Assembly: GCA_963843375.1 (NCBI GenBank)
Contig: CAWJKT010000009.1
Location: 160,001-224,000, forward strand
Direction of reading: 5' to 3'
Source of the DNA: an uncultured Pseudomonadota bacterium
Lineage (GTDB): Bacteria; Oederibacteriota; Muellerivitia; Muellerivitales; Muellerivitaceae
DNA length: 64,000 nucleotides
The position numbers and the translations under genes are program-made. Positions within the stretch are counted from its first letter, which is position 1; each line of letters opens with the position of its first letter. This document shows positions 1-19,436 of the stretch, one piece after another. The notes beneath the pieces were generated by a model that saw only the letters and a program-made list of their open reading frames with translations, did no database searches and was not told the DNA's origin.

Positions 1-2
1 AA

Positions 3-320: not shown

Positions 321-401
321 TAAATCTTTGTTTTATTAGAGTTTGCGCGTATACTTTTTAAGGGAATAATTATTGAAAAATAGCAAGGTTGGTAAGAGGT
401 C

Positions 402-713
402 ATGAAAAAACTGAAAGAAGCAAAAAGATTCAAGGTCACAATTGATGACAAAAATACTTTTATTGCTTGGACTTTTAGCGAGAAGTGGAACGAATGGTCT
501 GAGCCTTATTTTGAAAAAAGCGAAGCTGATAAGGTTGCCAAGATTCATGACTGTAAATACAACCCCGAAAATGATTCTTATGAATTTGAGCAAAACGGTG
601 ATGTGGAAGAATTCGAGGGAATTGAAATTAAAACCATAGAAGGTATCAAAAAGGTTTACGCAATTGGTGTGGGTTCATGGGTTTGGGATGAAGCCGAATC
701 AGTTGAAAATTAA
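402..713 (+). CDS. Hypothetical protein (acidic; WNEWSEPYF and YAIGVGSWVW motifs)
   Basis: 103-aa ORF with RBS AAGAGG before the ATG; same orientation as its neighbours. Confidence 0.7.
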   Translation: MKKLKEAKRFKVTIDDKNTFIAWTFSEKWNEWSEPYFEKSEADKVAKIHDCKYNPENDSYEFEQNGDVEEFEGIEIKTIEGIKKVYAIGVGSWVWDEAESVEN

Positions 714-744
714 ATTGATTACACTAAATTAGGGGTATAAATTT

Positions 745-1017
745 ATGAGTCAATACATATGGAAAACTGAAAAATATGAATTTAAAACTGGTTGGGATCG
801 ACCGTTAGAATATTATTTTTTGGTGATAGAACACATTAATCAAAAGAAAAAGAAGAAAGCTCCTGTATTTTCCAACCTTGAAATTCTTACCGGTCCCGGA
901 ATGACTCTTGAAGAAATCGAAGAAACTTGTTTACGTTATGTTTCAGCGTTGCCATCAGATATAAAAATGGCCTTACAAAACGATAAAATCAAACAGTCTT
1001 TGGAGTTGTTCATTTAA
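745..1017 (+). CDS. Hypothetical protein (GWDRPL motif)
   Basis: 90-aa ORF with a purine-rich RBS (AGGGG) upstream; collinear with its neighbours. Confidence 0.65.
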   Translation: MSQYIWKTEKYEFKTGWDRPLEYYFLVIEHINQKKKKKAPVFSNLEILTGPGMTLEEIEETCLRYVSALPSDIKMALQNDKIKQSLELFI

Positions 1018-1051
1018 ACCAGTTCCAATGACTTCAAGAGAATTTTTGTAA

Positions 1052-1297
1052 ACGGGTTCTGTGGTGGTTTATAGGCCTTATGAATCGAGAATTCTTAAAG
1101 AAACCGCTGAATTTTTACCTAAGTTCAAAACCCCACTATACGTAATCATCAAACGCTTTAAGGACTTGCTGATACCCTTTCGTAATCAGAGTGTGCTTTA
1201 ACCGGAATTTAACGGTTCCGCCAGTCTCAAATCCTTCTTGCCTGTGTTGGTGCCCAACATGAGTTATGACTATTTGGAGATTGGTGAGGGAATATGA
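1052..1297 (+). pseudogene. Remnant of a DUF2779-like (RNase H-fold/exonuclease-like) protein
   Basis: One frame reads GSVVVYRPYESRILKETAEFLP...IIKRFKDLLIPFRNQSVL*PEFNGSASLKSFLPVLVPNMSYDYLEIGEG. It has an internal TAA and no N-terminus. Confidence 0.65.
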
Positions 1298-1347
1298 TAA
1301 AATACCGTTAACGAATAATTTAAAAACCACGCTAACCTTAGGTGCGC

Positions 1348-1911
1348 ATGGAAAATATCTTTTCTTTAAACTACCCAGAGTACGCAACCATCAATCGAAT
1401 CAGCAAGATTTTAAAAGGAACTGGTTATTCGGCTTTTATTCCCGTAAGTAGGCAGCAAAAGGGCGTTGATTTTATTCTTCAAAACAACAAGAAGCCAAAT
1501 CATACGGTGCGATTTCAAGTCAAGAGTTCCAAAGTTTACCCAGAAAACAAACTAAAAACGTTCAATAACAAAAAAGAATATGGTTTGACTTTATGGTTTA
1601 ACAATTTCATTAATTCCGGGCAATATGAAAAAGGAAATTCTGATTATTATCTGTTTTTCGGCGTTTACCCAATTTTCACGAAATACACCACCAAAAAATC
1701 CAGAAAATTAAACGATTGGAAAGAAATACTTCTGTGCTTTAAAGAAGAGTATCTCTTTTCCCATATCAAAGAGAATGAACGATTTTTATATATCCATTTC
1801 AGCCTGAATGAAAATGGAAACGTTTCTGACGTTCTGGCGACCAGAGGGTTTAAAGAACATACGGACGTAACCGACTATTTAATTGAAAATCAACTTAAAG
1901 AGATTCTCTAG
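1348..1911 (+). CDS. Putative PD-(D/E)XK nuclease / restriction endonuclease-like protein
   Basis: The frame contains EYAT...QQKGVDFILQ...RFQVKSS, a D...QxK pattern. It is AT-rich and lies next to vsr. Confidence 0.55.
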   Translation: MENIFSLNYPEYATINRISKILKGTGYSAFIPVSRQQKGVDFILQNNKKPNHTVRFQVKSSKVYPENKLKTFNNKKEYGLTLWFNNFINSGQYEKGNSDYYLFFGVYPIFTKYTTKKSRKLNDWKEILLCFKEEYLFSHIKENERFLYIHFSLNENGNVSDVLATRGFKEHTDVTDYLIENQLKEIL

Positions 1912-2125
1912 GTATCGTCTGAATATTGCAGTCTTCAATTTCTTTGTATCTACTTCTAATTTCATTAAAAGCGTTGGCCGAATATACGGGGTAGCATATC
2001 TTTTGGATCAAAATTCTAAATAAGGAAAAAGCTTAAACCCCTTACTTTCCACCCAATCTAGCCCTGTCCGTACCATCCCCTAATCTATAAACGTATAAAA
2101 ATCAAAAAGAAGAGAGGTGGTCCCA

Positions 2126-2209
2126 ATGCATCATGGAATTTTTGGTTTATTCGTGGTTTTGGTTCTTGTGTGCGTTTTCGCTGCTATTTTCTCCGGTAAA
2201 AAGGAGTAA
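2126..2209 (+). CDS. 27-aa single-transmembrane small protein
   Basis: RBS GAGGTGG is followed by ATG. The ORF reads MHHGIFGLFVVLVLVCVFAAIFSGKKE*, a hydrophobic core with a charged C-terminus. Confidence 0.5.
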   Translation: MHHGIFGLFVVLVLVCVFAAIFSGKKE

Positions 2210-2350
2210 TAAGTTAGATAAACAGTGAATTTTAGGAATTGAGGTTTTTGTTGTAAACGCCGCTCGAAAAGTGTGACGGTGGGCGGTCCAAAAGTGTGAC
2301 ACCCCCCGCCTTCCATACGCCTTACGGTGTACGGTTGTAGGTTAGCCTTA

Positions 2351-3124
2351 TCAATCCTTCTTGTCTTTATGCTTTAGCCGTTTTTTTGATTCCACCAATC
2401 TATGGCTTTGGCCGTTCGCCTCTAGAATATGTACCCGATGGGTCAAACGGTCAATAAGCGCCCCCGTCATTCTCTCGGACCCCATGACTTCCACCCAATT
2501 TTCAAAGGGTAAATTAGTGGTCACGATCAGGCTAGTGCGCTCGTAGGCCTTGCTGACCACCTCGAAGAGCAGCTCCGCCCCGGCCTTGGCGAATGGGACG
2601 TAGCCCAGCTCGTCCAAGACGATCAAGTGGAGTCGGGCCAACTGCCGGTGGAACTTAGCCAGTTGTTTCTCCTCCCGGCGCTCCAGAAGCTCGGTCACCA
2701 AGCTGGTGACCGAGAAGAATTTCACCGCCCGGCCCTGGCAACAGGCCTGGAAGGCCAGGGCCGTGGCCAAGTGGGTCTTCCCGGTTCCTGAATTTCCGAT
2801 CAGCAGGACGTTTTCCTTTTTATCTATGTACTCGCCCCGCAGGAGTTCACGGGCCAACTCCTGGTTGATCGAGGGCTGGGCCTTGAAGTCGAATGTGTCC
2901 AATGTCTTGAGCACGGGAAAGCCGGCATCCCGAATGCGCCGCTCCTTGGCCCGGCGCTCCCGATCCAACAGTTCCAACTCGGCTAGTTTCAAGAGGAATT
3001 GCGGGTAGTCGCTGCGCTCGGTGCGGCAGAGCTGGGACATCTTGTCGTACTCGCGCAACATGGTGGGTAGCTTGAGCTTCTTGAGGTGGTGTTCCAATAG
3101 AAGGGTCTTTTTGGATTCGCTCAT
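2351..3124 (-). CDS. istB: IS21 helper ATPase IstB
   Basis: Walker A GNSGTGKT, Walker B LIVLDELG, TTNLPF and ALIDRL motifs. ATGA overlap with istA. Confidence 0.95.
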   Translation of the reverse strand: MSESKKTLLLEHHLKKLKLPTMLREYDKMSQLCRTERSDYPQFLLKLAELELLDRERRAKERRIRDAGFPVLKTLDTFDFKAQPSINQELARELLRGEYIDKKENVLLIGNSGTGKTHLATALAFQACCQGRAVKFFSVTSLVTELLERREEKQLAKFHRQLARLHLIVLDELGYVPFAKAGAELLFEVVSKAYERTSLIVTTNLPFENWVEVMGSERMTGALIDRLTHRVHILEANGQSHRLVESKKRLKHKDKKD

Positions 3125-4635
3125 GACTCACCTCCCACCGGCATCAACTCGCGGTAGGCCGCAAGATCCGTCCGGGCCACCTGGACTTGCCGCAAGTGCT
3201 CACGCCCGTCCAGCTTGAAGGTGGTCATCCGGTAATACTCCCGGGAGTAGAGCAACTGAGCCACGCCGTCCCGGGTGTAGATTTCCATTTCCACGGCTTT
3301 CTTCACTGCCCGTGTGAGCTTGCCCATGGAATGCTTTTCCAAAAGCCGCATCGTCTTGATGAATTCCCGTGTCCCCTCGCCGTGGAACTTTTCTTTTCCT
3401 TTCATGCGGCGATGCAGGAGTGTGAAACTCTCCGGCAGATTCCAGTCTGCAAGGGGCCTGGCATGATCGAATGCTCCAGGTTTTCCCTCCAAAACCGCCA
3501 AATAATGCACGGGATTTAAGGCCTCACCCTCCTTGACCCAGAGGCGTTGGTGGGTGGCGATGAGCTTGTCCTTGTGGAAAATCTCCACCCGGTCGATGTA
3601 TCCCTTGACCACCACCGGGTGATGGGCCCACTCGCAGGGAACCGAATAGTCGTTTGTGTTGAAGCGCACCAGGGACATGGACGTGGCCGTGGTGGACTGC
3701 TTGATACAGCCGTCAAAAGCAGCCGCTGGCAAGGGCCTGAAATGGGCCTTTTCTTCGTCTAGAAGTTGCTCTTTGGGAAGTTTTTTGCCACGCAATTTGC
3801 GTTGCAAGTCCTCCTCACATTTCACCACCAACTGTTCGTTCCACCCCTCCATGTTCCCCGTCACCTGCGGCACCGGCACCATGAAATTCAGTCTCGGGTA
3901 TTTCACCATGCCTTCCACGACACCCTTCTCGTTGCCACGGCGCACGGTGCAGAAGTGGTGGTCGAAGAGGTAGTGGCTTACCAACTGCTGAAAACCCTGC
4001 GTCAACTCCCGTTCGTGTACCCCGATCAACTTCTTCACGAGAGTCTTGGCGTTGTCGTAGCTGATCCGCCAGGGCACTCCGCCGAAATACTTGAAGGCCC
4101 GGATATGGCCTTCCCAAACGAACTCGGTTGATTCCCGCTCGAACATCTGCACAAAAAAGGCATCCGAGTAGGGCAAGGCCATCACGAAGTAGGGGCGTTT
4201 TACCAACACTCCGTTGAGCTTGATCAGGGCATGGCCGAAATCCACTTGGGCCTCACCGGGCCGGTGGATCAAGGGCACAAAGACCTCGCTGTTTTTGCGT
4301 TTCAAGCCCCGGACGGCCTTTTTGACCTGGGTATAGCCCCCGGTGTAACCTTCCTCGGCCTTGAGGCGATCGAAGATGCGCTTGGCCGTATGGTGCTGCT
4401 TTTTGTGGACGTGCTTGTCGTCCTGGAGGATTTGCAGGATTCGGCCCAGGAAGGGCCCGATCTTCGGCTGGGGCCGCTCCTGCTTCATCTGGTAGCCAGG
4501 CGGCTGACTGTTTTCAAGAATCTTCCTCAAGGTCTCCCAGTGGATGCCTTCTTCCTCCATCACCTGGCGCTTGGAGACCCCCTCCACCAGGATTTTCTTG
4601 CGGATTTCAGTCCATTGGTCCATGTCCTTGTACAC
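3121..4635 (-). CDS. istA: IS21 transposase IstA
   Basis: N-terminal HTH and DDE motifs AQVDFG, YDN and NEKGVVEG. Probable GTG start at 4635 after GGAGG. Confidence 0.95.
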   Translation of the reverse strand: MYKDMDQWTEIRKKILVEGVSKRQVMEEEGIHWETLRKILENSQPPGYQMKQERPQPKIGPFLGRILQILQDDKHVHKKQHHTAKRIFDRLKAEEGYTGGYTQVKKAVRGLKRKNSEVFVPLIHRPGEAQVDFGHALIKLNGVLVKRPYFVMALPYSDAFFVQMFERESTEFVWEGHIRAFKYFGGVPWRISYDNAKTLVKKLIGVHERELTQGFQQLVSHYLFDHHFCTVRRGNEKGVVEGMVKYPRLNFMVPVPQVTGNMEGWNEQLVVKCEEDLQRKLRGKKLPKEQLLDEEKAHFRPLPAAAFDGCIKQSTTATSMSLVRFNTNDYSVPCEWAHHPVVVKGYIDRVEIFHKDKLIATHQRLWVKEGEALNPVHYLAVLEGKPGAFDHARPLADWNLPESFTLLHRRMKGKEKFHGEGTREFIKTMRLLEKHSMGKLTRAVKKAVEMEIYTRDGVAQLLYSREYYRMTTFKLDGREHLRQVQVARTDLAAYRELMPVGGES

Positions 4636-4767
4636 TCCTTTTCCTCCCGGAAGCGTGGTTTTCATCACTGAAAAGCCCACATCTTCTAGGGAATTTCGGG
4701 GAGTGTCACACTTTACGACCGCCTTTTTGACCCTTCAGACCGTCACACTTTTGGAACGCCGTTTACA

Positions 4768-4952
4768 CCTCGCTTCGGGATATCCCGGTCGTGATCCTGA
4801 CCAACTCCCGGTCGGAAGCGGACGTTCGGCAGGCCTATGAGATCGGGGCCAATTATTATTTGATAAAACCGGCCAACTTCGATGAGTTCCGCTCGGCCAT
4901 CCAAAAGGTGGAGGAAATTTGGCTGGCGGGGGTTAACGGGCAGGAGGACTAG
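4768..4952 (+). pseudogene. C-terminal half of an Rcp1-like response regulator, truncated by IS21
   Basis: Directly after the IS end the frame reads SLRDIPVVILTNSRSEADVRQAYEIGANYYLIKPANFDEFRSAIQKVEEIWL...*. The N-terminal half with the phospho-Asp is absent. Confidence 0.85.
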
Positions 4953-4961
4953 GAGGATTCC

Positions 4962-5594
4962 ATGAAACATTTAATGTCAAAAGTTTGGTGGATCTTGATG
5001 CTTAGGGGGATACTGGGTTTAGTTCTGGGGCTGGCATCTTTGTGGCTTTTGGGCAGCGGGGAAAAATACGGGGATGAATTTGGCTTTTCCTTCCTGATCA
5101 GGCCGGTGGAGTTGATGATGACCTTGGTTCTTTTGCTGGGATTTTACGCCTTTTTGGAGGGACTTTTCTCCATCCTTTTAGGAATACAAGACTTTGGCCA
5201 AGGACGCCGTTGGTGGGTACTGGTCGTGGAAGGGATGATGACCATCGGTTTGGGCCTTCTGGCTTGGATGCGACCTGGTCTTTCCATCTTGATCCTTCTT
5301 TATTGGATTGCCGCCTGGGCGATCCTGTCGGGTTTGATGGAGATGAACCAAGGCCTGCGGGGAACCGAATATCGGGACCGTCGGTCGACCCTTTTTTATG
5401 CCGGACTTCTTTCCCTGCTTTTCGGAGCGGTCATCCTTTTGCAGGGAACTGAAAGCGACCGCCTCGTCTGGACCATCGCCCTCTATGCGCTGGTATCGGC
5501 TGTTCCTCCTTTGATCTTGGGATACCACCTGCGCCGGTTCCGCTTGGGGTCCCTGAGAAAAAGAAGGCGCGTGGTGGTCCTCATGAGGGGCTAA
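4962..5594 (+). CDS. HdeD/DUF308-family membrane protein
   Basis: Multiple TM helices; WWILMLRGILGLVLG and AWAILSG motifs; RBS GGAGG. Confidence 0.8.
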   Translation: MKHLMSKVWWILMLRGILGLVLGLASLWLLGSGEKYGDEFGFSFLIRPVELMMTLVLLLGFYAFLEGLFSILLGIQDFGQGRRWWVLVVEGMMTIGLGLLAWMRPGLSILILLYWIAAWAILSGLMEMNQGLRGTEYRDRRSTLFYAGLLSLLFGAVILLQGTESDRLVWTIALYALVSAVPPLILGYHLRRFRLGSLRKRRRVVVLMRG

Positions 5595-5656
5595 AGATCT
5601 AAGAACATTGGTGGAAAAGGGCGCGAACGCTATTAAAGTGTTGAGGGGATTTCCGA

Positions 5657-6091
5657 CTAATTTTTTTTGAGCCAGGTTTCTTCCAAGTAATTTATCAAGG
5701 CCCCGAAATGGGGAATATCATGCGGCTTCATGAGGAAATCATCAGCTAAGGAGAACCTGGCCTTTAATAAATCATGATCATTACGCGATCCAGTTAAAAT
5801 CAAGACAGGGATTTTCTTTAAACCCGAGTCCTCTTTGATTGTGGAAAGAACTTCCCAACCGCTTTTCTTGGGAAGGCTCAAGTCTAATAAGATGACATCA
5901 GGGGAGAGATGAAGGGATTTAAGATCATGGGGCCGGAGATAGTCCAACGCGCTTTCGCCGTCGGGCGCTACCGTCACATTGATGGGCCGTCTTGAATTCT
6001 CCAAGGCGTTCTTCATAAGCTCCGCATCCGCCGGGTTGTCCTCCACTAGAAGAATTTCAAACGGTTTAGTTTTTTGAGTTTCCGCTTTCAT
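5657..6091 (-). CDS. Single-domain response regulator (Rcp1-like)
   Basis: LLVEDNPAD, ILLDLSLP, LILTGS, MKP and a C-terminal YLEETWL. ATG at 6091 follows AAGGAGG. Confidence 0.9.
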   Translation of the reverse strand: MKAETQKTKPFEILLVEDNPADAELMKNALENSRRPINVTVAPDGESALDYLRPHDLKSLHLSPDVILLDLSLPKKSGWEVLSTIKEDSGLKKIPVLILTGSRNDHDLLKARFSLADDFLMKPHDIPHFGALINYLEETWLKKN

Positions 6092-6149
6092 GCGTTGCCT
6101 CCTTTGAAAAGCATTAATTCCGATTCTGGAACCCAAACCCACCGATGTC

Positions 6150-6641
6150 TTAAAAACCCAAGTTCCTTGATGCGCCGGGCGGAAGGTCCAGTCTTAATTC
6201 CTTAATCCAGTTCTCCTCAAGATAATTTAACAAGACGCCATACTGAGACCACACAAGGGGTTTTAAAAGATAGGCGCTTACCCGAGTTTGGTAGGCTTTC
6301 CATTTGTCTTCATCGAAATTGGAACTGGTCAGGATCAAAGTGGGGATATCGCTCAAGTGGCGGGAACGCTTGATTTCCGACGCGACTTCATGGCCGTTTT
6401 TTCGAGGAAGGTTTAAATCCAGCAGGATGAAATCAGGCCGGGATGTGGAAAAATAGGGATTTTTTCGACGTAAGTAGTTAATGGCTTGTTCCCCGTCTTC
6501 CACCACGTTCAGATTGATGGCATACCTGGAATTTTTGAAAGTTTCCTTTAAAAGGTTAACGTCACCGGGATTGTCCTCAACCAGAAGGATTTCCACAGCC
6601 CTTTGTTTTTTCGCCGGTTGAGTCTTCTGAATGGATTTCAT
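6150..6641 (-). CDS. Single-domain response regulator (Rcp1-like)
   Basis: LLVEDNPGD, ILLDLNLP, LILTSS, LKP and YLEENWI motifs. Confidence 0.9.
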   Translation of the reverse strand: MKSIQKTQPAKKQRAVEILLVEDNPGDVNLLKETFKNSRYAINLNVVEDGEQAINYLRRKNPYFSTSRPDFILLDLNLPRKNGHEVASEIKRSRHLSDIPTLILTSSNFDEDKWKAYQTRVSAYLLKPLVWSQYGVLLNYLEENWIKELRLDLPPGASRNLGF

Positions 6642-6859
6642 GCCGCCCTCAGTTTTTGGAAAAAGTCTCGCCAAGGACAAGATGGAAAGACATTGTTTCT
6701 TGTCAAGTCAAGCCGCGAACCAATGAGCCGAAAAGCCGGCCCGTAAAAAACGAGCTTTGAAATAAGGTTAAATCCGATCGTGAATTTTTTTCAATCCCTA
6801 AAAGGGCCTTTATTTAAATTTTCAGCCAGAACGATCTTTTGTGATTTTTTTAAAAATTT

Positions 6860-7285
6860 TTAATTTGGTTTTTCTTGAATGTTCGGCGTGAAACAATTCG
6901 GGGAAGGTTCAACAGAGGAACGCACCATTTTTATTAAAGCACCGCCATCCAGTTGGTTTTTGACGATGTAGTGCTGAGCGCCCAATTTAACCGCTTCTGC
7001 GGCTAGGTCGGGATCGTTATAGCCTGAAAGCACGAAAACCGGGATGAGCGGCTGGATCCGGTGGATAAGCACCAAAGGTTCCAGTCCCAAAAAAATGGGA
7101 AGAGATAAGTCCAAGAGGATGGCATCGATCTTTTCCTGGGATATGCGTTTAAGGGCGGTATCTAATTCAGCGGCTCGCGCTAGTTCAAAATCCCCATTTC
7201 CGAATTCCTGAAAAGCCTCTATCAATAAAAAGGCGTCAGGGGAATTGTCCTCAACGATTAATATCTTGAATTTTCTAGGATTCAT
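6860..7285 (-). CDS. Single-domain response regulator receiver
   Basis: LIVEDNSPD, ILLDLSLP, FVLSG and GAQHYIVK motifs. Confidence 0.85.
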   Translation of the reverse strand: MNPRKFKILIVEDNSPDAFLLIEAFQEFGNGDFELARAAELDTALKRISQEKIDAILLDLSLPIFLGLEPLVLIHRIQPLIPVFVLSGYNDPDLAAEAVKLGAQHYIVKNQLDGGALIKMVRSSVEPSPNCFTPNIQEKPN

Positions 7286-7699
7286 AAAAGTATTTTATTT
7301 AATTTTCGGGCCTAAAAGCTTGGTTTTTTGCACTTGGATATAAAAAAGTATCCGAAAGTAAGGAAACCATTTACCTCTAATGAATAATTTTTAACTGATT
7401 TTTTACAAATTTTTTTTATTTTCTCTCTTGGTTCCTGAAACCTTGAGATTTTATAAAAATTCTTGATCAAATTCCCGATTTTAGATGGCTGGGTGTTTGA
7501 AATGCCCGCTGAATTGGCACGATTCCTTTTGGCGTTAATAAACCATATCGAATGTTTCCGAAAAATTATTTAAAAGCTCGGCGATATAATTAAATTGTAA
7601 TTGATAGCGATCGATTGTGCGGAAGTGGAACTCATCAATTTTCTTCCTCCTGCATTTCGCTATCCCCGGCCATTTTAACGATTTAAAACTGGAGGGCGA

Positions 7700-10600
7700 A
7701 TGTCAACTCAACTTCATCGTGAAGACTCGACTTTCGAAGCTGATTCCCTGGACGCGAACCAACTACTAAAAACCATGATGGCGTTAAAAAGGGGGGATTT
7801 TTCCGTCCGCCTTCCGATTGAATGGACCGGCACGGCAGGAAAGATCGCCGATACGTTCAACTATGTCGTGGAAATGAACGAACGCATGGCCGGGGAATTG
7901 GAACGGCTTCGTCAAGCTGTAGCTAAGGAAGGAAAGATCAATCAGCGGGCGTTGCCGGGGGAGTTTGGCGGATCCTGGTCACGGATGATCGAGTCGGTGA
8001 ACACCCTCATTGATGAACTGGTGCGCCCTACCAGTGAAATGTCGCGCGTTATTGGCGCCGTCGCCAAGGGAGACCTTTCCCAGGCGGCAGCCTTGGAAGT
8101 GAGCGGGCGTCCCTTGGAAGGAGAATTTCTTCAAACCGCCAGAACCATCAACACCATGGTGGACCAACTCCGGTCTTTCGCCTCGGAAGTTACCCGTGTG
8201 GCCCGCGAAGTCGGAACGGAAGGGAAATTAGGGGGCCAGGCTATCGTCCCGGGAGTCGCCGGTACCTGGAAAGACCTGACTGATAACGTCAATCTCATGG
8301 CCAGTAACCTGACCGGCCAGGTTCGTAATATCGCGGAAGTCACCATCGCCGTGGCTAACGGTGACTTGTCGAAAAAAATCACCGCCGACGTGCGTGGTGA
8401 AATACTCCAGTTAAAAGAAACCATCAACACGATGGTGGATCAACTCCGTTCCTTTGCCTCGGAAGTTACCCGCGTGGCGCGCGAAGTGGGTACGGAAGGA
8501 AAACTAGGCGGCCAGGCTATTGTGCCGGGAGTTGCGGGTACCTGGAAAGACCTTACCGACAATGTCAATTCCATGGCTAGTAATCTGACCGGCCAAGTTC
8601 GTAATATCGCGGAAGTCACCATCGCCGTGGCCAGCGGCGACCTGTCGAAAAAAATTACCGCCGACGTGCGTGGTGAAATTCTCCAGTTAAAAGAAACGAT
8701 CAACACGATGGTGGATCAACTCCGTTCCTTCGCTTCGGAAGTTACCCGTGTGGCCCGCGAAGTGGGTACGGAAGGAAAACTGGGCGGCCAAGCCCAGGTG
8801 CCGGGGGTTGCGGGAACTTGGAAAGACCTGACCGACAATGTTAATTCCATGGCAAGCAACTTGACCGGCCAAGTGCGTAACATCGCGGAAGTCACCACGG
8901 CCGTAGCCAACGGCGACTTGTCGAAAAAAATCACCGCCGACGTGCGTGGTGAAATACTCCAGTTAAAAGAAACCATCAACACGATGGTGGATCAACTCCG
9001 TTCCTTCGCCTCGGAAGTTACCCGTGTGGCCCGCGAAGTGGGTACGGAAGGAAAACTGGGCGGCCAAGCTGTCGTCCCGGGCGTCGCGGGAACCTGGAAA
9101 GATTTGACTGACAACGTGAACTTGATGGCCAGCAACCTTACGGGCCAAGTCCGTAATATCGCCGAGGTGACCATCGCGGTGGCCAACGGCGACCTGTCCA
9201 AAAAAATCACAGTCGACGTAAAGGGCGAAATATTAGCCTTGAAGAACACAATTAATATCATGGTGGACCAACTCAACGCTTTTGCTGGGGAGGTCACCCG
9301 TGTGGCCCGTGAAGTGGGTACGGAAGGAAATTTAGGAGGCCAGGCTCAGGTTCCGGGGGTCGCCGGCACCTGGAAAGACCTGACGGAGAACGTCAACTTG
9401 ATGGCCAGCAACTTGACAGGTCAAGTGCGCAACATTGCCGAGGTTACCATTGCGGTGGCCAGCGGAGACTTGTCGAAAAAGATCACGGCGGATGTGCGAG
9501 GTGAAATCCTCCAGTTAAAAGAAACCATAAACACCATGGTGGACCAATTGAGTTCCTTCGCTTCCGAAGTCACCCGCGTGGCACGGGAAGTCGGGACTGA
9601 CGGTAAATTGGGAGGCCAGGCCTATGTGCCCGGGGCAGCCGGTACCTGGAAGGACTTAACGGACAACGTAAATTCCATGGCCAGCAACTTGACCGACCAA
9701 GTGCGTAACATCGCCGACGTTACCACCGCCGTGGCCAGCGGCGACCTGTCTAAGAAAATCACGGTGGATGTCAAAGGTGAAATTCTCGAACTCAAAGATA
9801 CGATCAACACCATGGTGGACCAACTGAACGCCTTCGCGGGAGAAGTCACCCGCGTGGCCCGCGAGGTGGGTACGGAGGGGAAACTCGGCGGCCAAGCCCA
9901 GGTGCCGGGTGTGGGCGGGACCTGGAAAGAATTGACGGACAACGTAAATTCCATGGCCAGCAACTTGACCGACCAAGTGCGTAACATCGCCGACGTTACC
10001 ACCGCCGTGGCCAGCGGCGACTTGTCGAAGAAAATCACGGTGGACGTCAAAGGTGAAATTCTCGAACTTAAAGACACGATTAACACCATGGTGGACCAAC
10101 TGAACGCCTTCGCGGGAGAAGTCACCCGTGTGGCCCGCGAGGTGGGTACGGAAGGGAAACTCGGCGGCCAAGCCCAGGTGCCGGGTGTGGGCGGGACCTG
10201 GAAAGAATTGACGGACAACGTAAATTCCATGGCCAGCAACTTGACTGACCAAGTGCGTAACATCGCCGACGTCACCACCGCCGTGGCTAGCGGCGACCTG
10301 TCGAAGAAAATCACGGTGGACGTCAAAGGCGAAATCCTGGAGTTGAAAAATACCATTAACACTATGGTGGACCAATTAAGTTCTTTTGCTTCTGAAGTTA
10401 CCCGCGTGGCCCGCGAGGTCGGTACCGAAGGAAAACTCGGCGGCCAGGCTTACGTTCAAGGTGTGGGTGGTACTTGGAAGGAACTGACGGACAACGTCAA
10501 TTTTATGGCCAGCAACCTGACGGGCCAGGTTCGTAACATCGCGGACGTTACCACGGCTGTTGCAAAGGGCGACTTGTCGAAAAAAATTACGGTGGACGTC

Positions 10601-13600
10601 AAAGGTGAAATCCTAGAGTTGAAAAATACCATTAACACCATGGTGGACCAGCTCAACGCCTTTGCGGGAGAAGTCACACGGGTTGCGCGCGAGGTAGGTA
10701 CCGAAGGGAAACTCGGAGGCCAGGCCGAGGTGCCGGGAGTCGGTGGTACCTGGAAGGACTTGACCGACAGCGTGAATTCCATGGCCAGCAATTTGACCGA
10801 CCAGGTTCGTAACATCGCCGACGTCACCACCGCAGTGGCTAACGGTGACCTATCCAAAAAAATCACCGTCGACGTGCGGGGTGAAATTCTCCGTCTCAAG
10901 GAAACGATCAACACCATGGTCGACCAACTGCGATCTTTCGCCTCCGAGGTAACCCGCGTGGCGCGTGAAGTGGGAACCGAAGGAAAGCTCGGCGGCCAGG
11001 CTTACGTCCAGGGCGTCGGCGGTACCTGGAAAGACTTGACAGATAATGTGAATTCCATGGCCAGCAACTTGACAGGCCAAGTGCGTAATATCGCCGATGT
11101 CACCACCGCTGTGGCCCGGGGCGACTTGTCCAAAAAAATCACGGTGGATGTCAAGGGCGAGATTTTGGAGTTGAAGAACACCATTAACACCATGGTGGAC
11201 CAGTTAAACGCCTTCGGCGGGGAGGTCACCCGCGTGGCGCGTGAAGTGGGAACCGAAGGAAAGCTCGGCGGCCAGGCGCAAGTCAAGGGGGTTTCGGGGG
11301 TTTGGAAAGACCTTACCGACAACGTCAACCTTATGGCGGCCAATCTGACCGATCAGGTTCGTAATATTGCAAAGGTGGTCAGTTCGGTCGCCAGCGGAGA
11401 ATTGAAACAAAAACTCACCGTCGTGGCCAAGGGCGAAATCGCCGCTTTGGCTGACACGATCAATAGCATGATTGATACCCTGGCCACCTTCGCGGCCCAG
11501 GTCACCAGTGTGGCGAGGGAAGTCGGTGTGGAAGGGCGGTTGGGAGGCCAGGCCAATGTTCCGGGTGCGGCGGGAACCTGGAAGGACCTAACCGACAACG
11601 TCAATCAACTTGCGGCTAACTTGACAACCCAGGTACGCGCCATCGCCGAGGTGGCCACCGCCGTGACCAAAGGTGATTTAACTCGGTCAATTCGTGTTGA
11701 TGCCAGCGGCGAAGTTGAAACTTTGAAAGACACCATTAACCAGATGATCGCCAACCTACGCGGCACCACCCAGAAGAACGCCGAACAAGACTGGCTCAAG
11801 ACCAACCTTGCGCGCTTTACCCGGATGTTGCAGGGACAACGTGACCTTCCAACGGTTGCGAAGGCCATCCTGTCCGAACTGAACCAGGTTGTGGCAGCCC
11901 AACACAGCGCCTTTTATATCGCCAATACCAAGGAGCAGGGTGAAACACGCCTCCAGTTTCTTTCCGGTTTTGCCTATAGATCCCAACCGGAACTTCCAAA
12001 GGAATTCGCCCTTGGAGAGGGCTTAGTAGGAGAGTGTGCTCAGGAGAAGTCCCGGCTTCTGCTGAACAAGGTCCCCAGTAATTACATCCGCATAGGCTCG
12101 GGATTGGGTGAATCCACACCCTCGAATATCGTGGTGCTTCCGGTTCTTTTCGAAGGCCAAATAAAGGGCGTGCTGGAATTGGCGTCTTTTGAGACTTTCA
12201 GCACGACCCATTTAGCGTTCCTCGAGCAGTTAATGGAAAGTATCGGTATCGTCATTAATACTCTTGAAGCGACTCTGCGCACGGAAACTCTGTTGAAACA
12301 CTTGCAAAGCCAGCAGGAAGAATTGCAGAAAACCAACCAGGAGTTAGAAGAAAAGGCTGACCAGTTGGCCCTGACATCCAAATACAAGTCCGAATTCCTT
12401 TCCAATATGTCCCATGAGTTGCGCACCCCATTAAACAGCATGCTGATTCTCTCCCAACAACTGGCGGAGGATTCCAAGAACCTAACGACTAAACAGGTGG
12501 AATACGCTCGAACCATCCACGCTTCGGGCGGCGACCTGTTGCTTTTGATCAACGACATCCTTGATTTGGCAAAGGTGGAATCCGGCACCATGACCTTGGA
12601 TGTGGACAATGTGCCTTTCAACGAAATGCGCGAGCATATGGAAAGGCTTTTCCGCCACGTGGCCGAAGGTAAGGGCTTGAACTTTAACATCGAGATTGAT
12701 TCCCGGTTGGGCGGGGAGATTCATACGGACTCCAAGCGTCTGGAACAGGTCTTGAGAAATCTCCTTTCCAACGCCTTCAAGTTTACTGAAAAGGGTCAGG
12801 TGTCCCTCAAGATATCTTCCGCTAGCAGTGGCTGGAGCCCAGATCACCCGGCCCTTAGCAGGGCGGAGGAAGTGGTGGCTTTTTCCGTTATCGACACGGG
12901 AATCGGAATCCCTGAGGACAAGCAAAAGATCATCTTTGAGGCGTTTCAACAAGCCGAAAGCGGAACCAGCCGGAAATATGGAGGCACGGGTCTGGGTTTG
13001 TCGATCAGCCGGGAGTTGGCCAAGCTCCTTGGAGGACAGTTGACTCTGTCCAAGAGCCACCTTGGACGGGGTAGTACTTTTGTGCTCTACATGCCCAAGA
13101 ACTTCATACAGGTCAAAACGGCCGGCATGAGTACAAGCCAGGCTGAAAAAACGGCCTTATTGCTTCCTAAGCCTTACCGGGATCCCCTGAAGGCGGAAAA
13201 CGAAGGGGTGGTGGTGGCCGCAAGCAAGGTGGCGGACGACCGCAGAAACATCAAGCCCGGGGATAAAGTGCTTTTAATCGTTGAAAATGACGCCAACTTT
13301 GCCCGAATTCTGGTTGATGTAGCGCATGACAAAGGCTTCAAAAGCCTCGTGGCCCTTCGAGGTGATACGGCCCTGCGTTTGGCCGATGAGTTCCGGCCCA
13401 GCGCGGTGACACTGGACATTCAGCTTCCAGACATCGACGGTTGGAAAATACTTTCGCGATTCAAAAATGACCTGGCCGCCCGTCATATCCCCGTGGAGAT
13501 TATCTCTGCCGATGAGGATTGGACGAGGGGTTTAAAACAGGGGGCGGTGGGCTTTCTCGCAAAACCCGTCAGTAAGGAGGGGTTAAAGAAGGCCTTTGCG

Positions 13601-14428
13601 GACATCCAAAAGTTCCTAGAACCTGGTGTCCGTCAACTCCTGCTTGTTAGCGCCCAAAAGAGTCAGCGTAACAAACTCAAGGAAATGCTGGAATTCGGGG
13701 AGATCAAGGTGAAAGCCGTATCTGACAGTCGGGAAGCACTGCCGCTATTGAAGAAGGGAAACTTGGATTGTCTTGTTCTTGAATTGCCGGAAGCGGATGG
13801 TTTCCGAATGTTAAAGGAGATACATTCCAATTCCGATTTCGCCAACCTGCCCACTGTTGTTTACATCAACAGCGACTTAACCAAGGAAGAGGAAGCGCAA
13901 TTGAAGCGCGCTTCCAAAACTTGCGTCATCAAGGAGTCTAAATCCCTTGAACGTGTAGTGGACGAGGTGGCCCTTTTCCTTCACCAAGCGACCGCGAAAT
14001 TGCCTGAAACCAAACGAAAAGGAATTGAGCAATTGTACCAAAGCAACGCGGCCCTGACGGGGCGTAAGGTATTGGTAGTCGACGACGACATCCGGAATAT
14101 TTTCGCCATGACCAGTCTTTTGGAGCATCAGCAGATGAAAGTCGTTTCGGCTGAAAGCGGTCGTGAGGCCATCGACCTTTTGGAAAAGACTCCGGACGTC
14201 GATATTGTGTTGATGGACATCATGATGCCGGAAATGGACGGTTATGACACCATGCAGGCGATTCGACAAAAGAAATCTTTCAAATCCCTGCCCATCGTCG
14301 CTTTAACCGCCAAGGCCATGAAAGGGGATCGTGAAAAATGTATCGAGTCCGGCGCTTCGGATTACATCACGAAACCGGTCGATTCGGAACAGTTGATTGC
14401 CATTATGCGAATGTGGGTGAGCCGGTAA
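7700..14428 (+). CDS. Cytoplasmic hybrid histidine kinase: poly-HAMP - GAF - HisKA - HATPase - 3 x REC (group III/Nik1/OsaA-like architecture)
   Basis: Tandem 92-aa HAMP units and a GAF segment (GEGLVGECA). H-box [15 protein letters not shown]-box [11 protein letters not shown]-boxes DTGIGI and GGTGLGL. Three receiver domains, no TM helix; RBS GGAGG. Confidence 0.95.
8000..11760 (+). repeat. Tandem 276-bp (92-aa) poly-HAMP repeats
   Basis: The motif G(T/V)WK(D/E)LT(D/E)(N/S)VN recurs at exact 276-nt spacing from 8261 to 11573 (13 copies), with a more divergent unit before it. Boundaries are approximate. Confidence 0.95.
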
Positions 14429-14542
14429 CAAGCGAAGGAATAGGTTTCAAATCGAGAAAAGGGGAATTGAAAGAATCCATCCCAAGGGGGAAGAAGCCAG
14501 GTTGGATAAAGGTCTTTTTTGACCTTTGAAGGAGGGAAATAC

Positions 14543-15898
14543 ATGACAGAGAAAGATAGCCCGGTCAATATTCTCTTAGTCGACGATGAGCCGAAAAACC
14601 TTTTGGCATTGGAAGCCGTTTTGGAGGGACTAGGCCAGAACCTCGTGAAGGCGCGTTCGGGCGATGAAGCCTTAAGGCGTCTTATTCATGAGGACTTTGC
14701 GGTCATCCTTTTGGATGTGCTGATGCCAGGGATGAACGGTTTTGAGACGGCGACACTGATCCGTCAGCGCGACCGAACTAGATATACGCCCATCATTTTT
14801 TTGACGGCGGCTGGAAAATCCGAAACCGAGATGTTTCAAGGCTACGCTGTGGGCGCCATTGACTACTTGGTGAAACCTTTTGTCCCGTCGATCTTGCGGT
14901 CCAAGGTTGTAGTCCTGATCGATTTGTACCGAAAGAACGAGCAGGTTCGCCAGCTAAATGAAGAACTTAGCCATAGGTCTCAGGAGTTAGAGATCCTTAA
15001 CTTGAAATTAAAAAATGAAAACGAGATTCGCAAACGGACCGAAGAGGAGTTGCGCCAATCGGAGGAGGGGTTAAAAAGCCTCAACGCCACATTGGAGGCA
15101 AAGGTTGTGGAGCGAACGGAAACGGTGGAAGAACGAAGCCGCCAACTGGCCAAGATTAATGTCGAACTGGAGCAGTTCGTTTACGCCGCCTCTCATGACT
15201 TGCAAGAGCCCTTGCGAACGGTGACCAGTTTCTTGCAACTATTGGAGCGCCGCAACAGGGATTTGCTGGACAATGATTCAAAACAATTCATTGATTTCGC
15301 CGTCAAAAGCTCCGAACACATGCGCAGCCTGATCAACGGCCTTTTGGAATTCTCGCGGGTGAACTTGAAGGAAAAAAAGTTTCAGAGTGTTGATTGTAAT
15401 GTGATTGTAAGTGAGATCCTTAAACAATTAAACGCTTCCATTGTCGAAAGCGGAGCCAAGGTGGAATGCCTGTGGTTACCCGAGGTTTGGGGCGAGCCGA
15501 TGTTATTAGGGCAGCTTTTCCAAAATCTGATTGGAAACGCCCTCAAGTTTTGTTCCGAACGTTCTCCGCGAGTGGAGGTAGGAGCTGAAAAGCGGGAAGG
15601 GGAATGGCTTTTTTGGGTCAAGGACAATGGTATTGGCATTGAACCGCAGTATTTCCGCCAGATTTTCCTTCTTTTTCAGAGACTTAACAATCGTGAAAAT
15701 TTTCCCGGAGCCGGCCTGGGTTTGGCTGTATGCCAAAAAACCGTGGAACTTCACGGAGGTAAGATTTGGTGCGAATCTGAGTTTGGGAAAGGTTCCCGCT
15801 TTTTCTTTACGATTCCTTACTCCCCGAAAGTCGCTGAGGCACCCAGGTTGGAATCGGCAATTAAAAAGGAGAAAGTGGGGAATCCGGGCCAAGGCTAG
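14543..15898 (+). CDS. REC - coiled coil - histidine kinase (Cph1/bacteriophytochrome-type H-box)
   Basis: N-terminal REC (LLVDDEPKN, LLDVLMP), H-box ASHDLQEPLR, QNLIGNALKF, DNGIGI and GAGLGL. ATG follows GGAGG. Confidence 0.92.
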   Translation: MTEKDSPVNILLVDDEPKNLLALEAVLEGLGQNLVKARSGDEALRRLIHEDFAVILLDVLMPGMNGFETATLIRQRDRTRYTPIIFLTAAGKSETEMFQGYAVGAIDYLVKPFVPSILRSKVVVLIDLYRKNEQVRQLNEELSHRSQELEILNLKLKNENEIRKRTEEELRQSEEGLKSLNATLEAKVVERTETVEERSRQLAKINVELEQFVYAASHDLQEPLRTVTSFLQLLERRNRDLLDNDSKQFIDFAVKSSEHMRSLINGLLEFSRVNLKEKKFQSVDCNVIVSEILKQLNASIVESGAKVECLWLPEVWGEPMLLGQLFQNLIGNALKFCSERSPRVEVGAEKREGEWLFWVKDNGIGIEPQYFRQIFLLFQRLNNRENFPGAGLGLAVCQKTVELHGGKIWCESEFGKGSRFFFTIPYSPKVAEAPRLESAIKKEKVGNPGQG

Positions 15899-15977
15899 AG
15901 TAACGGATTCGGTTTGGGAAAATATCGCCTTTAACTAGGAGTTTTTACGGTAAAGCTACGTATGTAAAAGAGGACTC

Positions 15978-16682
15978 ATGTCTCTCGAGAAAATGAAATC
16001 AAAAATTGTTTCGACAATTCGAGAAGAATTTTTAAAACATCATGTTCGAATCGATGATGAGAACATACGTTCATCGGAAACGAAAGATGTTTTGTCGATC
16101 TGGATTGAACAAAAAGACGGCTTAAATACCAGCAGAGATAAATTTATAGTCAATAAGGGCGATTTGTTGGATGGGGTTAACTATTCCCTTGCCATCGATT
16201 ATCGCATTGGCAAATGGATAAATTATTACGAATGCGAGTTTTCCAAAATACGAACGAGGGCTCCCATTTTGATGGCGGACGACAACGTGGGTGATTGTTT
16301 TCTCGTGGCTGAAGCCTTGAAAGCCAATCTGGTTGAAAATCCTTTTGTGGCAGTTTCGGATGGCGAGGAATTGCTGAACTATCTTTTTCGACGAGGAAAG
16401 TTTGCCAGTCCAGGGTTGGCGCCTTGTTTTATTCTTTTGGATTTAAACATGCCTCGAATAGACGGACGAGAAGTCTTACAAGTCCTCAAAACCGACAATA
16501 GCTTTCGCAAAATACCAGTAGTGGTATTTTCTTCATCCAAAGCTGAGCAGGATATTTTGAAGGCCTATGATTACGGGGGTAATTCTTTCATTACCAAGCC
16601 CTCGACTTTTGAAAGGCTTTTAGAAATAGTGAAAATTCTTCAAGTGTATTGGCTGGATGTCATAGAACTTCCTTTTGGTTAA
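15978..16682 (+). CDS. Rcp1-like response regulator with an unrecognised ~95-aa N-terminal extension
   Basis: The C-terminal REC reads ILMADDN, ILLDLNMP, VFSSS, TKP and VYWL. Confidence 0.85.
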   Translation: MSLEKMKSKIVSTIREEFLKHHVRIDDENIRSSETKDVLSIWIEQKDGLNTSRDKFIVNKGDLLDGVNYSLAIDYRIGKWINYYECEFSKIRTRAPILMADDNVGDCFLVAEALKANLVENPFVAVSDGEELLNYLFRRGKFASPGLAPCFILLDLNMPRIDGREVLQVLKTDNSFRKIPVVVFSSSKAEQDILKAYDYGGNSFITKPSTFERLLEIVKILQVYWLDVIELPFG

Positions 16683-16891
16683 TAGATTTCCCTTAAGGTT
16701 TGAATTAGGGACATCCCATTTTCTGATCAAAGAGGTAAAATTAACTCAGAAGAAACAATTTAATTGTTGGGGTTGACGCGTCAACGATTATCATTCGTTC
16801 TCATTTAAAAAAGAGAGAAAACCTGGCTTGATCGCCGGGAGTTCCTCTTTCCTATGCCGATTCAATACTGATCAAATTGTTAGGAGGCGTT

Positions 16892-17344
16892 ATGATCTCG
16901 TTAACCCAAAAGTTAAGCCGGTCCATCCACGTCTTGCTCGTTGAGGACAACCTTGCCGATGTCACCCTCATTGTGGAAGCTTTCAAGGGGTGTCAAAAGC
17001 CGATCCAAGTGACTCGAGTGAAAGACGGGGAAGAAGCCCTTCAATATCTTCGGGGCCAGAGTCACCTTGCCCAGACCCATAGGCCCGATCTTGTCCTCTT
17101 GGACTTAAACATGCCAAAAAAATCCGGGTTGGAGGTATTAAACGAAATTAAATCCGACCCGGAATTAAAAGAGATACCCGTGGTGGTCTTGACTAATTCC
17201 AAGATGCAATCGGACATCCAAAAGGCTTACGAGTCCAAGGCCAATTTTTACATTGTTAAACCCTCCGATTTGGATGAACTATTCGGGGTCGCGAAATACT
17301 TGGAAACTATTTGGTTGAAAAGTGTGGACAGCCCAGACGATTAA
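16892..17344 (+). CDS. Single-domain response regulator (Rcp1-like)
   Basis: LLVEDNLAD, VLLDLNMP, VLTNS, VKP and YLETIWL motifs. RBS AGGAGG precedes the ATG at 16892. Confidence 0.9.
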   Translation: MISLTQKLSRSIHVLLVEDNLADVTLIVEAFKGCQKPIQVTRVKDGEEALQYLRGQSHLAQTHRPDLVLLDLNMPKKSGLEVLNEIKSDPELKEIPVVVLTNSKMQSDIQKAYESKANFYIVKPSDLDELFGVAKYLETIWLKSVDSPDD

Positions 17345-17407
17345 ATTCTTTGCGTTCGGATGAAAGGAAACCCTTCGATGGTTGGGTTTCCCCTGCGGTT
17401 GTAAGGG

Positions 17408-18742
17408 GTGGTTATGAATTTAACGCCAACCCGTATTTTACTGATAGAAGATAATCCCGGAGATGCCCGCCTACTTAAGGAGACTCTCGGGGAACAAAAG
17501 GAACCTCTGTATCTTTTAGAAAGAGCCCCGAACCTTCGTGAGGGCCTGGGACGTCTTAGCAGAGGTAACTTGGACCTCGTTTTGTTAGACCTGTTTCTTC
17601 CCGATTCCTCCGGCGTTTCGACATTAGAGTCGGCTTTGAAAGCCGCAAACCAAGTCCCCATTATCGTTTTGACGGGTCTGAATAATACGGAAACCGCCAT
17701 GAAATCACTCAAAGAGGGAGCCCAGGATTTTCTGGTAAAGGACAATTTAAGCAGGGAAGTTCTCACTCGTTCCATCAGCTATTCCATTGAGCGTTATCGC
17801 CTTCACAAAAAACTACAGGAGGACGAAGAACGGTATTATTTGGTTGCCCAAGGCTCTCATGATGGACTTTGGGATTGGGACCTTCAATCGGATCGGATTT
17901 ACTTCTCCCCGCGTTGGAAACTCATGCTAGGTTACGCCGATGGGGAGATCGGGTGGGATCCAAGTGAATGGCTCAACCGCATCCATCCGGGGGATCTGGA
18001 GAAGGTTAAGCGGGATTTGTCCGACCATCTTTCGGGCAAGTCTTCGCATTTTTCCAACGAGCATCGTCTTCAGCATAAGGATGGCCGTTATCGATGGGTT
18101 TTGGGCAGGGGGCTGGCCATTCATTCCGGTCGGGACATGCCAACCCGTATTGCGGGTTCCTTCACCGATATTACCCGCCATAAGGAAATGGAAAAGAAAC
18201 TGGCCTTGCGCGCCTTTTACGATCCATTAACGGGTCTTCCCAACCGAGCCCTTTTCATGGACTGCCTTGGTCGGGCCTTCGCCCGGCTGGAGAGACATCC
18301 ACATAACATTTTTTCCGTTTTCTTTCTGGACTTAGACCATCTCAAACAAATCAATGACCATATAGGTCACCAAGCCGGGGACGAACTCTTGATCGAGTTC
18401 GCCCGGAGAGTGAAATCCACCGTCAGGCCGAACGACTTGGTGGCACGTATGGCCGGCGATGAATTCACGGTACTTTTGGAAGACATTAAGGATATTCAGG
18501 AAACCAAAGAAGTGGCGGAGCGTATCCTGGAAACGATGCGAATACCCTTCCTATTAGGAGGGCAAGAGGTGGTTTCTACAGTTAGTATTGGTATTGCCTA
18601 TTCCGATTGTGGAAAGGAGGACCCCGATGGTCTTCTGAAAGCCGCAGACTCAGCAATGTATTTGGCCAAGGAAGCAGGCAAAGCCCGCTATGAAGTTTTC
18701 GGCCAACCCAAAAACCCCGGCGAACCGCCCGCAAATTCCTGA
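17408..18742 (+). CDS. REC-PAS-GGDEF diguanylate cyclase (AGDEF variant)
   Basis: REC domain, PAS (DGLWDWD...YFSPRW...IHPGD), DPLTGLPNR, DLD..K..ND..GH..GD, RPND I-site and AGDEF. Confidence 0.9.
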   Translation: MVMNLTPTRILLIEDNPGDARLLKETLGEQKEPLYLLERAPNLREGLGRLSRGNLDLVLLDLFLPDSSGVSTLESALKAANQVPIIVLTGLNNTETAMKSLKEGAQDFLVKDNLSREVLTRSISYSIERYRLHKKLQEDEERYYLVAQGSHDGLWDWDLQSDRIYFSPRWKLMLGYADGEIGWDPSEWLNRIHPGDLEKVKRDLSDHLSGKSSHFSNEHRLQHKDGRYRWVLGRGLAIHSGRDMPTRIAGSFTDITRHKEMEKKLALRAFYDPLTGLPNRALFMDCLGRAFARLERHPHNIFSVFFLDLDHLKQINDHIGHQAGDELLIEFARRVKSTVRPNDLVARMAGDEFTVLLEDIKDIQETKEVAERILETMRIPFLLGGQEVVSTVSIGIAYSDCGKEDPDGLLKAADSAMYLAKEAGKARYEVFGQPKNPGEPPANS

Positions 18743-19024
18743 AAAATTGCTGTCCAATATTTATTAAGGGGAAGGGCTTCTATAATTTCGTCAAAATCCA
18801 TCAATTGCCTTACTATAACCTTGTTTTGGGAAAATGAATTTTGTTAAAGTCCGAACGATAAAATTTTGATAGACACGGTTATGACACTAGTGCAAAATCA
18901 ATCTCCCTTTGGGAAGGCTGGTTGGAAAAACCTTTTGGATAGTAGGGTTTTTTTACGATTGTTTGCGAGTCTTTTAAAAATGACTGAAACCGCCTAAGGG
19001 CGGCTGGTCAATGTGTTTGAAATG

Positions 19025-19100
19025 GCTTGTAATAGAGGAAAATGGAGCAACGCTTCTTGTAAGCGGTACGTCACCGGTCCGATTTCCGGTCGCTACTCTA
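19025..19100 (+). pseudogene. Degenerate tRNA-Thr(UGU) remnant
   Basis: Reads GAGCA-ACGCTT-CTTGTAA-GCGGT-ACGTC-ACCGG-TCCGATT-T-CCGGT-CGCTAC. This keeps a TGT anticodon loop and a T-arm stem, but the stems are broken and there is no D-arm or CCA. It lies where tRNA-Thr normally precedes tRNA-Tyr. Confidence 0.6.
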
Positions 19101-19141
19101 CTTTTCTTTGATAAAAGACTCGGCTTTTCGCGAGGATTAGT

Positions 19142-19229
19142 GGACAGGTGCCCGAGTGGTCAATGGGAGCAGACTGTAAATCTGCCGGCCGTCCGGCCTA
19201 CGAAGGTTCGAATCCTTCCCTGTCCACCA
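19142..19229 (+). tRNA. tRNA-Tyr (GTA)
   Basis: GGACAGG/CCTGTCC acceptor stem, anticodon arm GCAGA-CTGTAAA-TCTGC, long variable arm, TTCGAAT and CCA. Confidence 0.97.
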
Positions 19230-19436
19230 TGCAATGCGCCCTGTTCTTCTAGAATTGTTTTAGGGGAGCGGGGCTTACTTTTAGCGGACCATCTTTACTC
19301 TTAGATTGAAAATTGGGATACTTTTAGCTCACGCAAGTTTTCTATAATTAGGGCTAGGGCCTAAAAACAAGAATTGTGTCACCCCCATTACCTTCATCGG
19401 GTTTTGCCCGATATAGAAATAAATGAGGGTGCGGGT

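Follow-up and report, generated by a model that had tools for sequence, protein, structure and literature searches.

The decayed piece of tRNA-Thr(UGU) that lies just upstream of tRNA-Tyr(GUA) in this genome is almost certainly the outer right boundary of a tandem array of three elements integrated in the tRNA-Thr(UGU) gene. The explanation that accounts best for the whole of the locus, and which we consider probable, is that this remnant is the decayed right attachment site (attR) of the outermost element, and that a scrap of integrase gene left 190 nt upstream of it serves as a replacement promoter for tRNA-Tyr. The window, that is, the whole stretch of 64,000 nucleotides that was analysed, corresponds to C9:160001-224000 of the source genome G000, a 4.05-Mb assembly of 32 contigs that is 80% complete. 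Positions given without a contig name are window positions, and the features of the locus are collected in Table 1.

Table 1. Features of element C and of the Thr-Tyr junction (window positions unless a contig is named)
Feature	Position	Strand	Remarks
Element C	C9 89535-179055 (right 19 kb = window 1..19055)		89.5 kb; outermost of three tandem elements
vsr, 3' part	3..320	+	last gene of a defence block; block lies left of the window
IS21-family element	2258..4767	-	istA 3121-4680, istB 2351-3124
Signalling cargo	5657..18742		response regulators, 2242-aa poly-HAMP hybrid kinase, receiver-kinase, receiver-PAS-GGDEF protein
A/T-rich non-integrase segment	18783..18865	+	common to integrase-less right ends of G000 (two), G015, G036 and L079; mostly gapless
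Last 15 codons of the element family's tyrosine integrase	18866..18910	+	80% identical to residues 351-365 of an intact copy; tblastn E 2.7e-4
Direct repeat GACAC-N5-TGACAC	18870..18887	+	integrase 3' end
Sigma70-like motif	18870..18898	+	-35 TAGACA (18870-18875), 17 nt, -10 CAAAAT (18893-18898); faces tRNA-Tyr
Worn inverted repeat	18926..18954	+	copy of the repeat that comes after the integrase stop codon in intact elements
GC-rich hairpin	18981..19010	+	within a ~62-nt insert limited to integrase-less ends
Decayed 3' 45 nt of tRNA-Thr(UGU)	19056-19100	+	anticodon loop to CCA; attR core, displaced gene end
Native chromosomal Thr-Tyr spacer	19101..19141	+	same block as the empty sites of G039 and G008
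tRNA-Tyr(GUA)	19142..19229	+	only copy found in the assembly (80% complete); severed from the native promoter before tRNA-Thr

The best match of the remnant among the 46 tRNAs of the genome is the single tRNA-Thr(TGT) (score 72, the next being 58.5), with 92% identity over 38 nt by BLAST (E 2.5e-5), and its local alignment score of 65 stands against a maximum of 27 in 5000 shuffles. It differs from the intact tRNA-Thr(UGU) by four substitutions, one insertion and one deletion, that is, six changes in 45 nt, the first 11 nt of the core being unchanged. A covariance search with Rfam RF00005 gave no match up to E=1 and ARAGORN called no gene at the remnant, the full cloverleaf of a functional tRNA not being found there; at relaxed settings over the whole genome the output of ARAGORN was mostly noise. 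The sequence-only reading that first drew attention to the locus had named the lack of a covariance signal as grounds for dropping the idea, and the signal is indeed lacking, but the tRNA origin stands because direct sequence identity overrides the silence of both programs. The same reading had described a tRNA-like 3' two-thirds. The derivation from tRNA-Thr(UGU) was correct and the extent was not, since only tRNA positions 32-76 are present: the 31 nt before position 19056 match the 5' part of the tRNA at 6 of 31 ungapped positions and align instead with other island ends. The GAGCA motif that had been counted as tRNA also precedes a near-perfect fragment in an island end of the relative G036, so that it most likely belongs to the arm of the element, and the CCA end reported as missing is there in decayed form, as CTA. 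The distance to tRNA-Tyr, given as about 40 nt, was measured at 41 nt.

The assembly is error-prone, and the damage to the remnant could itself be sequencing error. By comparison with G001, a genome of the same genus that is 99% complete, tuf (about 23929) and an aspartase/fumarase-like gene (about 22782) each carry a frame-breaking single-base indel, and further frame-breaking indels were found in an rplJ-like gene and others (26931-27309 and onwards). Altogether 32 such indels were counted in 11.6 kb aligned in the window, some spurious ORFs being included in the count, vs none in 7.1 kb on contig C20, and in element A, the innermost of the array, they reach up to 8.7 per kb. The indels in tuf and the other genes are most likely assembly errors, and 'pseudogene' calls in the window therefore need care. 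At the remnant, however, sequencing error is refuted. Four runs were compared there; one (X2) provided no cover, and contigs of the other three, two of which come from a second study, span it with no differences and no gaps (X1 18414-19510, X3 18781-19229, X4 18693-19285). Because these three agree completely, the changes are real, and we give sequencing error a negligible probability. It had been judged unlikely from the start, on the argument that the long ORFs show no indels; the judgement was right and the argument wrong, tuf being frameshifted.

As had been anticipated, there is an intact tRNA-Thr(TGT) in the same orientation whose 3' half matches; it lies at C20:29560-29635, at its native left flank right after rlmB, and is followed by the left end of an element. 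Contig C9 carries two perfect same-strand tRNA-Thr fragments, at 32353-32403 (51 bp) and 89490-89534 (45 bp). With C20 placed before C9, the order is intact tRNA-Thr, element A, perfect 51-bp fragment, element B (57 kb), perfect 45-bp fragment, element C, decayed fragment, native spacer and tRNA-Tyr. Because of the two perfect copies further left on C9, the remnant is seen to close the outermost of three tandem elements. At least 188,672 bp of inserted DNA separate tRNA-Thr from tRNA-Tyr. The left end of element A carries a coupling protein, and its right end carries the only tyrosine integrase of the array; a search of elements B and C for a tyrosine integrase (PF00589) gave no match, and a profile search found no further att-like end inside C, the left core of which is perfect. 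By a reading of its ORFs, B carries metabolic cargo.

The placing of C20 before C9 was made because the array of G001 is collinear with both contigs. In G001 the intact gene, two perfect fragments and tRNA-Tyr are found over 188 kb of one contig, and both flanks are syntenic with C20 and C9. Its middle element matches element A at 94% for the left end on C20 and at 89.6% for the right end (first 32 kb region of C9), and the integrases of the two are 100% identical in protein; this copy of element A has VirB4-like and VirB6-like genes. In G000 itself the assembly does not join C20 to C9, and the ends of both look like junk. C20 ends in simple repeats, and the first 6.5 kb or so of C9 (C9:1-6550) has 56-65% GC and contains copies of insertion sequences; both are probably foreign sequence joined by the assembler.

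The remnant lies at the ancestral distance from tRNA-Tyr, with the native spacer after it, as would also be the case if the original tRNA-Thr had decayed in place after a duplication or rearrangement in which no integrase took part. Against this, the match is limited to the 3' 45 nt, the sequence upstream is an element arm common to other island ends, and at the native flank the intact gene leads into the left end of an element. Decay in place is refuted by this common arm and by the two perfect copies on C9, and we regard it as very improbable. The intact gene on C20, together with an empty site at 12 loci of relatives, thus upholds the original proposal that the remnant is the right attachment site of DNA integrated in tRNA-Thr(UGU). 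The claim that all window DNA to its left is inserted has also held, by the same two observations and by the signalling cluster not being found beside an intact Thr-Tyr pair in any of the five relatives searched. Integrated DNA had been supposed to form a single island of more than 19 kb, but it is made up of three tandem elements, and instead of the intact gene with a nearby integrase that had been expected as left partner, the nearest partner is a perfect fragment 89.5 kb away, the sole tyrosine integrase being in the innermost element.

Twenty-four loci were examined. In 12 the two genes are adjacent, an intact Thr lying 18-146 nt ahead of Tyr; another 10 loci are split; and the remaining two have too little upstream DNA. 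The assembly of G039 holds an empty Thr-Tyr site and both occupied junctions together (L069, L070, L071), which reflects either excision in progress or a strain mixture. G010 carries a homologous kinase inside a 154-kb Thr-Tyr gap; G012, with an empty site, matches the IS21 element only. At the outermost end of the G001 array (L002, G001:C4 about 319750), an unrelated T-arm-like sequence stands before the native spacer instead of a Thr fragment. In G016, a "tRNA-Leu(TAG)" called by ARAGORN at L009:1415-1489 is really a decayed tRNA-Thr attR; decayed attR ends can in this way enter annotations as false tRNAs. To the right of the junction, a 601-aa ORF between tRNA-Gly and a lyase gene (19585-21390) is found with 83% DNA identity in G001 and had no Pfam match at E 1e-5.

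Crossover in the anticodon loop and arm-type sites are features of tyrosine integrases. In the mechanism that we propose, the tyrosine integrase would recombine in the anticodon loop of tRNA-Thr(UGU), and every newcomer would restore the tRNA-Thr gene and shift the older elements rightwards, so that the end marked by the remnant would be the oldest. An intact integrase precedes the same fragment in element A, in G001 (X and Y), and in G036, G017 and G018. At the window end, the gene is absent apart from its last 15 codons. The direct repeat contained in these codons was found at the 3' end of 47 of the 48 integrases examined in the family and recurs inside left ends; such repeats are likely to be arm-type binding sites of the integrase.

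Two classes of right end can be told apart, one in which the integrase is complete and the repeat lies 125-126 nt from the core, and one in which the integrase is missing and this distance is 165-190 nt. The integrase-less class comprises the window end, the end of B, G015, one end of G036 and the metagenome locus L079, and is characterised by the ~15 codons, the A/T-rich segment and the extra hairpin. Alignments of the A/T-rich segment score 11-19, whereas none of the 500 shuffles made for each scored above 0. Integrase-less right ends with the common extra hairpin are found in three genera, and their cargoes differ. The left end of B is 97.5% identical over 5610 bp to sequence at the intact tRNA of G031, which belongs to another genus, and its right end is 99.97% identical over 3238 bp to sequence beside tRNA-Tyr in L079, the flanking genes of which are 73% identical to those of G000. 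These near-identical ends in other hosts point to a recent movement of B without an integrase of its own, in cis or in trans, L079 being one record that could be misjoined at the tRNA repeat. When the remainder of B was searched for in G031, G036, G015, G039, G003, G032, G013 and G001, the only high-identity match was at a contig end of G031; as this genome is 89% complete, the result does not show that the rest of B is lacking there. It is from near-identical copies in other hosts that we infer the mobility of the integrase-less elements.

The empty sites carry TTGACG..TATAAT upstream of Thr in 10 of 12 cases, and because the operon promoter sits upstream of tRNA-Thr, an insertion strands tRNA-Tyr. 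The motif T[TA]GACA-17-[GC]AAAAT is present 61-315 nt before Tyr in all 10 split loci and in none of the 12 adjacent ones, and four of the five occurrences of the exact motif in the 4.05-Mb genome are at integrase ends. In G010, G033, G034 and G035, and in the pre-Tyr copy of G036, the tRNA fragment is gone and the second repeat is lost, and both boxes are invariant. Among the first four, which belong to a single genus (the g10 genomes), 0 of 12 box columns vary vs 8 of 17 spacer columns (Fisher p 0.006, overstated by the fact that these genomes are kin and represent one event). In the flanks of the fragment-less cases, 22-23 of the 37 non-box positions agree with intact integrase ends, vs 19 at most in 163 other promoter-like sites. 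Since the motif is still present in five genomes, its boxes unchanged, after both the tRNA fragment and the second repeat have been lost, the scrap is likely to be a domesticated promoter, and these sequence comparisons lead us to favour the view that it acts as a replacement promoter for the stranded tRNA-Tyr. The outward -35 and -10 boxes, written into the last codons of the integrase and overlying the arm-type repeats, would offset the loss of the operon promoter. The host would need the promoter but not the tRNA fragment, so that the fragment would decay and the promoter stay.

It could also be that the scrap persists only because it works as a recombination arm, or has not yet eroded, and that transcripts of tRNA-Tyr arise by read-through from the signalling genes or at a promoter that went unrecognised. 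The direct repeat is general in the integrase family, as seen above, and the window retains both of its repeats. Taken by itself the window motif is a weak match, 9/12, of which one was found vs 1.2 expected by chance in the region. The co-oriented GGDEF gene ends 400 nt upstream and no terminator was found after it, so that read-through into tRNA-Tyr is possible. The ends in the window, G015, G016, G001 and L079 are so young that recency or arm-site function would suffice to explain why they are retained. Yet an arm site is useless without a core, and in the five genomes that lack both the second repeat and the tRNA core, the -35 box, the 17-nt spacing and the -10 box are unchanged. We therefore hold retention as an arm or by recency to be rather unlikely, and continue with the replacement promoter as the preferred reading.

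In intact integrases the -10 box is found mostly in close relatives of the Thr-targeting enzyme and is missing from several that precede an intact tRNA; its presence may partly reflect protein constraint. That it tracks promoter need across all intact integrases was considered and not cleanly borne out, the box following kinship more clearly. Elsewhere in the genome (G000:C11 about 457595, minus strand) there is a dead integrase of the same family, the last codons of which carry the same -35/-10 motif about 90 nt before tRNA-Arg(ACG); intact integrases related to it target the 3' end of tRNA-Arg(ACG) in other genomes. A search of titles and of the starts of abstracts, to which the subscription literature was mostly external, found no earlier account of a promoter that lies inside an integrase gene and serves the following tRNA of an operon.

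Element C lacks the integrase of its own that defines an IME or ICE, 15 codons of a tyrosine integrase being what remains. Of transfer genes it has coupling-protein pieces, the breaks in which could be assembly errors, and it has no DNA match to the transfer region of A; it also holds ArdC, RadC and a WYL pair. After the WYL pair comes a DISARM-like block (DrmA, DrmB, DrmC, a DrmE-domain protein and a C5 methyltransferase) with a type II restriction enzyme and vsr behind it (G000:C9:148985-160320, L041:6985-18320), the whole having 38-40% GC and ending at position 320. Further to the left inside C, a group II intron reverse transcriptase adjoins a 281-aa serine recombinase (G000:C9:135607-138005, L040). 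The signalling cluster is found in G001 at an unrelated locus, with 66-81% identity, and the poly-HAMP kinase cluster (7700-15898) has a paralogue of 70-75% identity at G000:C11:353538-359437.

It is somewhat more probable than an even chance that C is a fusion of the left half of a young conjugative element with the right end of a cargo element that is older and lacks an integrase. The two may meet at the IS21 element, which is a candidate for the point where the younger left part gives way to the older right part. This possibility refines the explanation given above and does not replace it. The left end of C is 98.5% identical to that of B over 206 bp, yet its right core has six changes; the backbone genes that C retains are those of a left half, with no DNA match to the right-half transfer genes of A; and the runs that have a letter-identical right end show an intact tRNA-Thr followed by a different left end, the B/C junction being uncovered in the four runs. 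On the other side, an inner att remnant was not found in C and the breakpoint was not located, absent contig cover proves nothing, and the junction contigs could stem from a related organism.

With the right core decayed, excising C now would leave the host with a damaged tRNA-Thr, and this damage may hold C in place, a possibility that we see as evenly poised. The predicted post-excision tRNA loses the cloverleaf in the fold (-25.0 vs -34.2 kcal/mol). ARAGORN still calls it a tRNA-Thr, and because of this the lock-in of C can be called only likely; the stronger proposal, that excision of C leaves a dead tRNA, was borne out only in part, the fold being lost and the call kept.

Regarded as the question was first posed, the remnant is an ordinary island boundary of the known tandem-array kind, and what is new is the predicted domesticated promoter together with the standardised integrase-less ends. 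For the family as a whole we put forward, tentatively and with slightly less than even expectation, a reading in two parts. The last codons of the integrase would encode a promoter that rescues the tRNA downstream of the target, and hosts would repeatedly have domesticated this 45-bp scrap as a lasting promoter of tRNA-Tyr; and an integrase-less cargo lineage with standardised ends (upstream segment, arm repeats, promoter, hairpin) would ferry 17-90 kb of unrelated genes between genera by means of the integrase of its neighbours. It suggests, in a form open to test, why elements that integrate in the leading gene of a tRNA operon need not deprive the cell of the tRNA behind it, and the genomes form a series whose steps run from an intact element down to the promoter alone. 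Were it true, it would explain the persistence of such island ends, it would mean that a host translation gene comes to depend on mobile-element sequence, and it would flag large integrase-less islands that island finders anchored on integrases would miss.

The array is probably a case of the known ICE-CIME accretion. As far as the accessible text on ICESt1/ICESt3 of Streptococcus thermophilus goes (PMC5704250), decayed integrase-less members are stacked there in tandem, and the arrangement is similar in that an intact integrase-bearing element lies by the restored target, older integrase-less ones lie behind it, and the target end is repeated at each junction. The present case differs in that integration is in the leading gene of a tRNA operon, the array reaches at least 188 kb and the outer core is decayed, and also in that the integrase-less ends share an upstream segment and a hairpin across genera, instead of being independent ruins. 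Tandem accretion with decayed, integrase-less members is also described, in the portion available, for SXT arrays (PMC5812530), and the accessible part of a preprint likewise assumes tandem occupation of one spot (bioRxiv 10.64898/2026.01.13.699239). The ssrA islands of Dehalococcoides, according to the excerpted account (PMC3146451), resemble our array in that several tandem islands lie behind one RNA gene, many of them lack integration modules and the farthest are fixed; they rely on a serine recombinase and tmRNA, whereas here a tyrosine integrase and the anticodon loop of a tRNA are involved, and that excerpt mentions no downstream-promoter role. The microcin H47 island of Escherichia coli (PMC3191183) is an integrase-less island shown by experiment to be moved by an outside recombinase, as we infer for the elements described here; it measures 13 kb and has long imperfect repeats, while ours measure 17-90 kb and reside at a tRNA.

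The closest counterparts of the predicted promoter are SXT, inserted in prfC, and IMEVchUSA3, inserted in dusA, which according to the available part of the source supply a new promoter at attR, as shown with a reporter for dusA and reported for SXT (bioRxiv 10.1101/2021.06.18.448947). In our case too an outward promoter sequence at the element end faces the cut-off host gene, and the element would compensate a gene severed from its promoter, as judged from sequence and its conservation. SXT and IMEVchUSA3, as that text presents them, enter the 5' end of a protein gene, which is also the gene that they rescue, whereas the promoter predicted here would rescue the next tRNA of the operon, lies within the last codons of the integrase, and persists after the element is gone.
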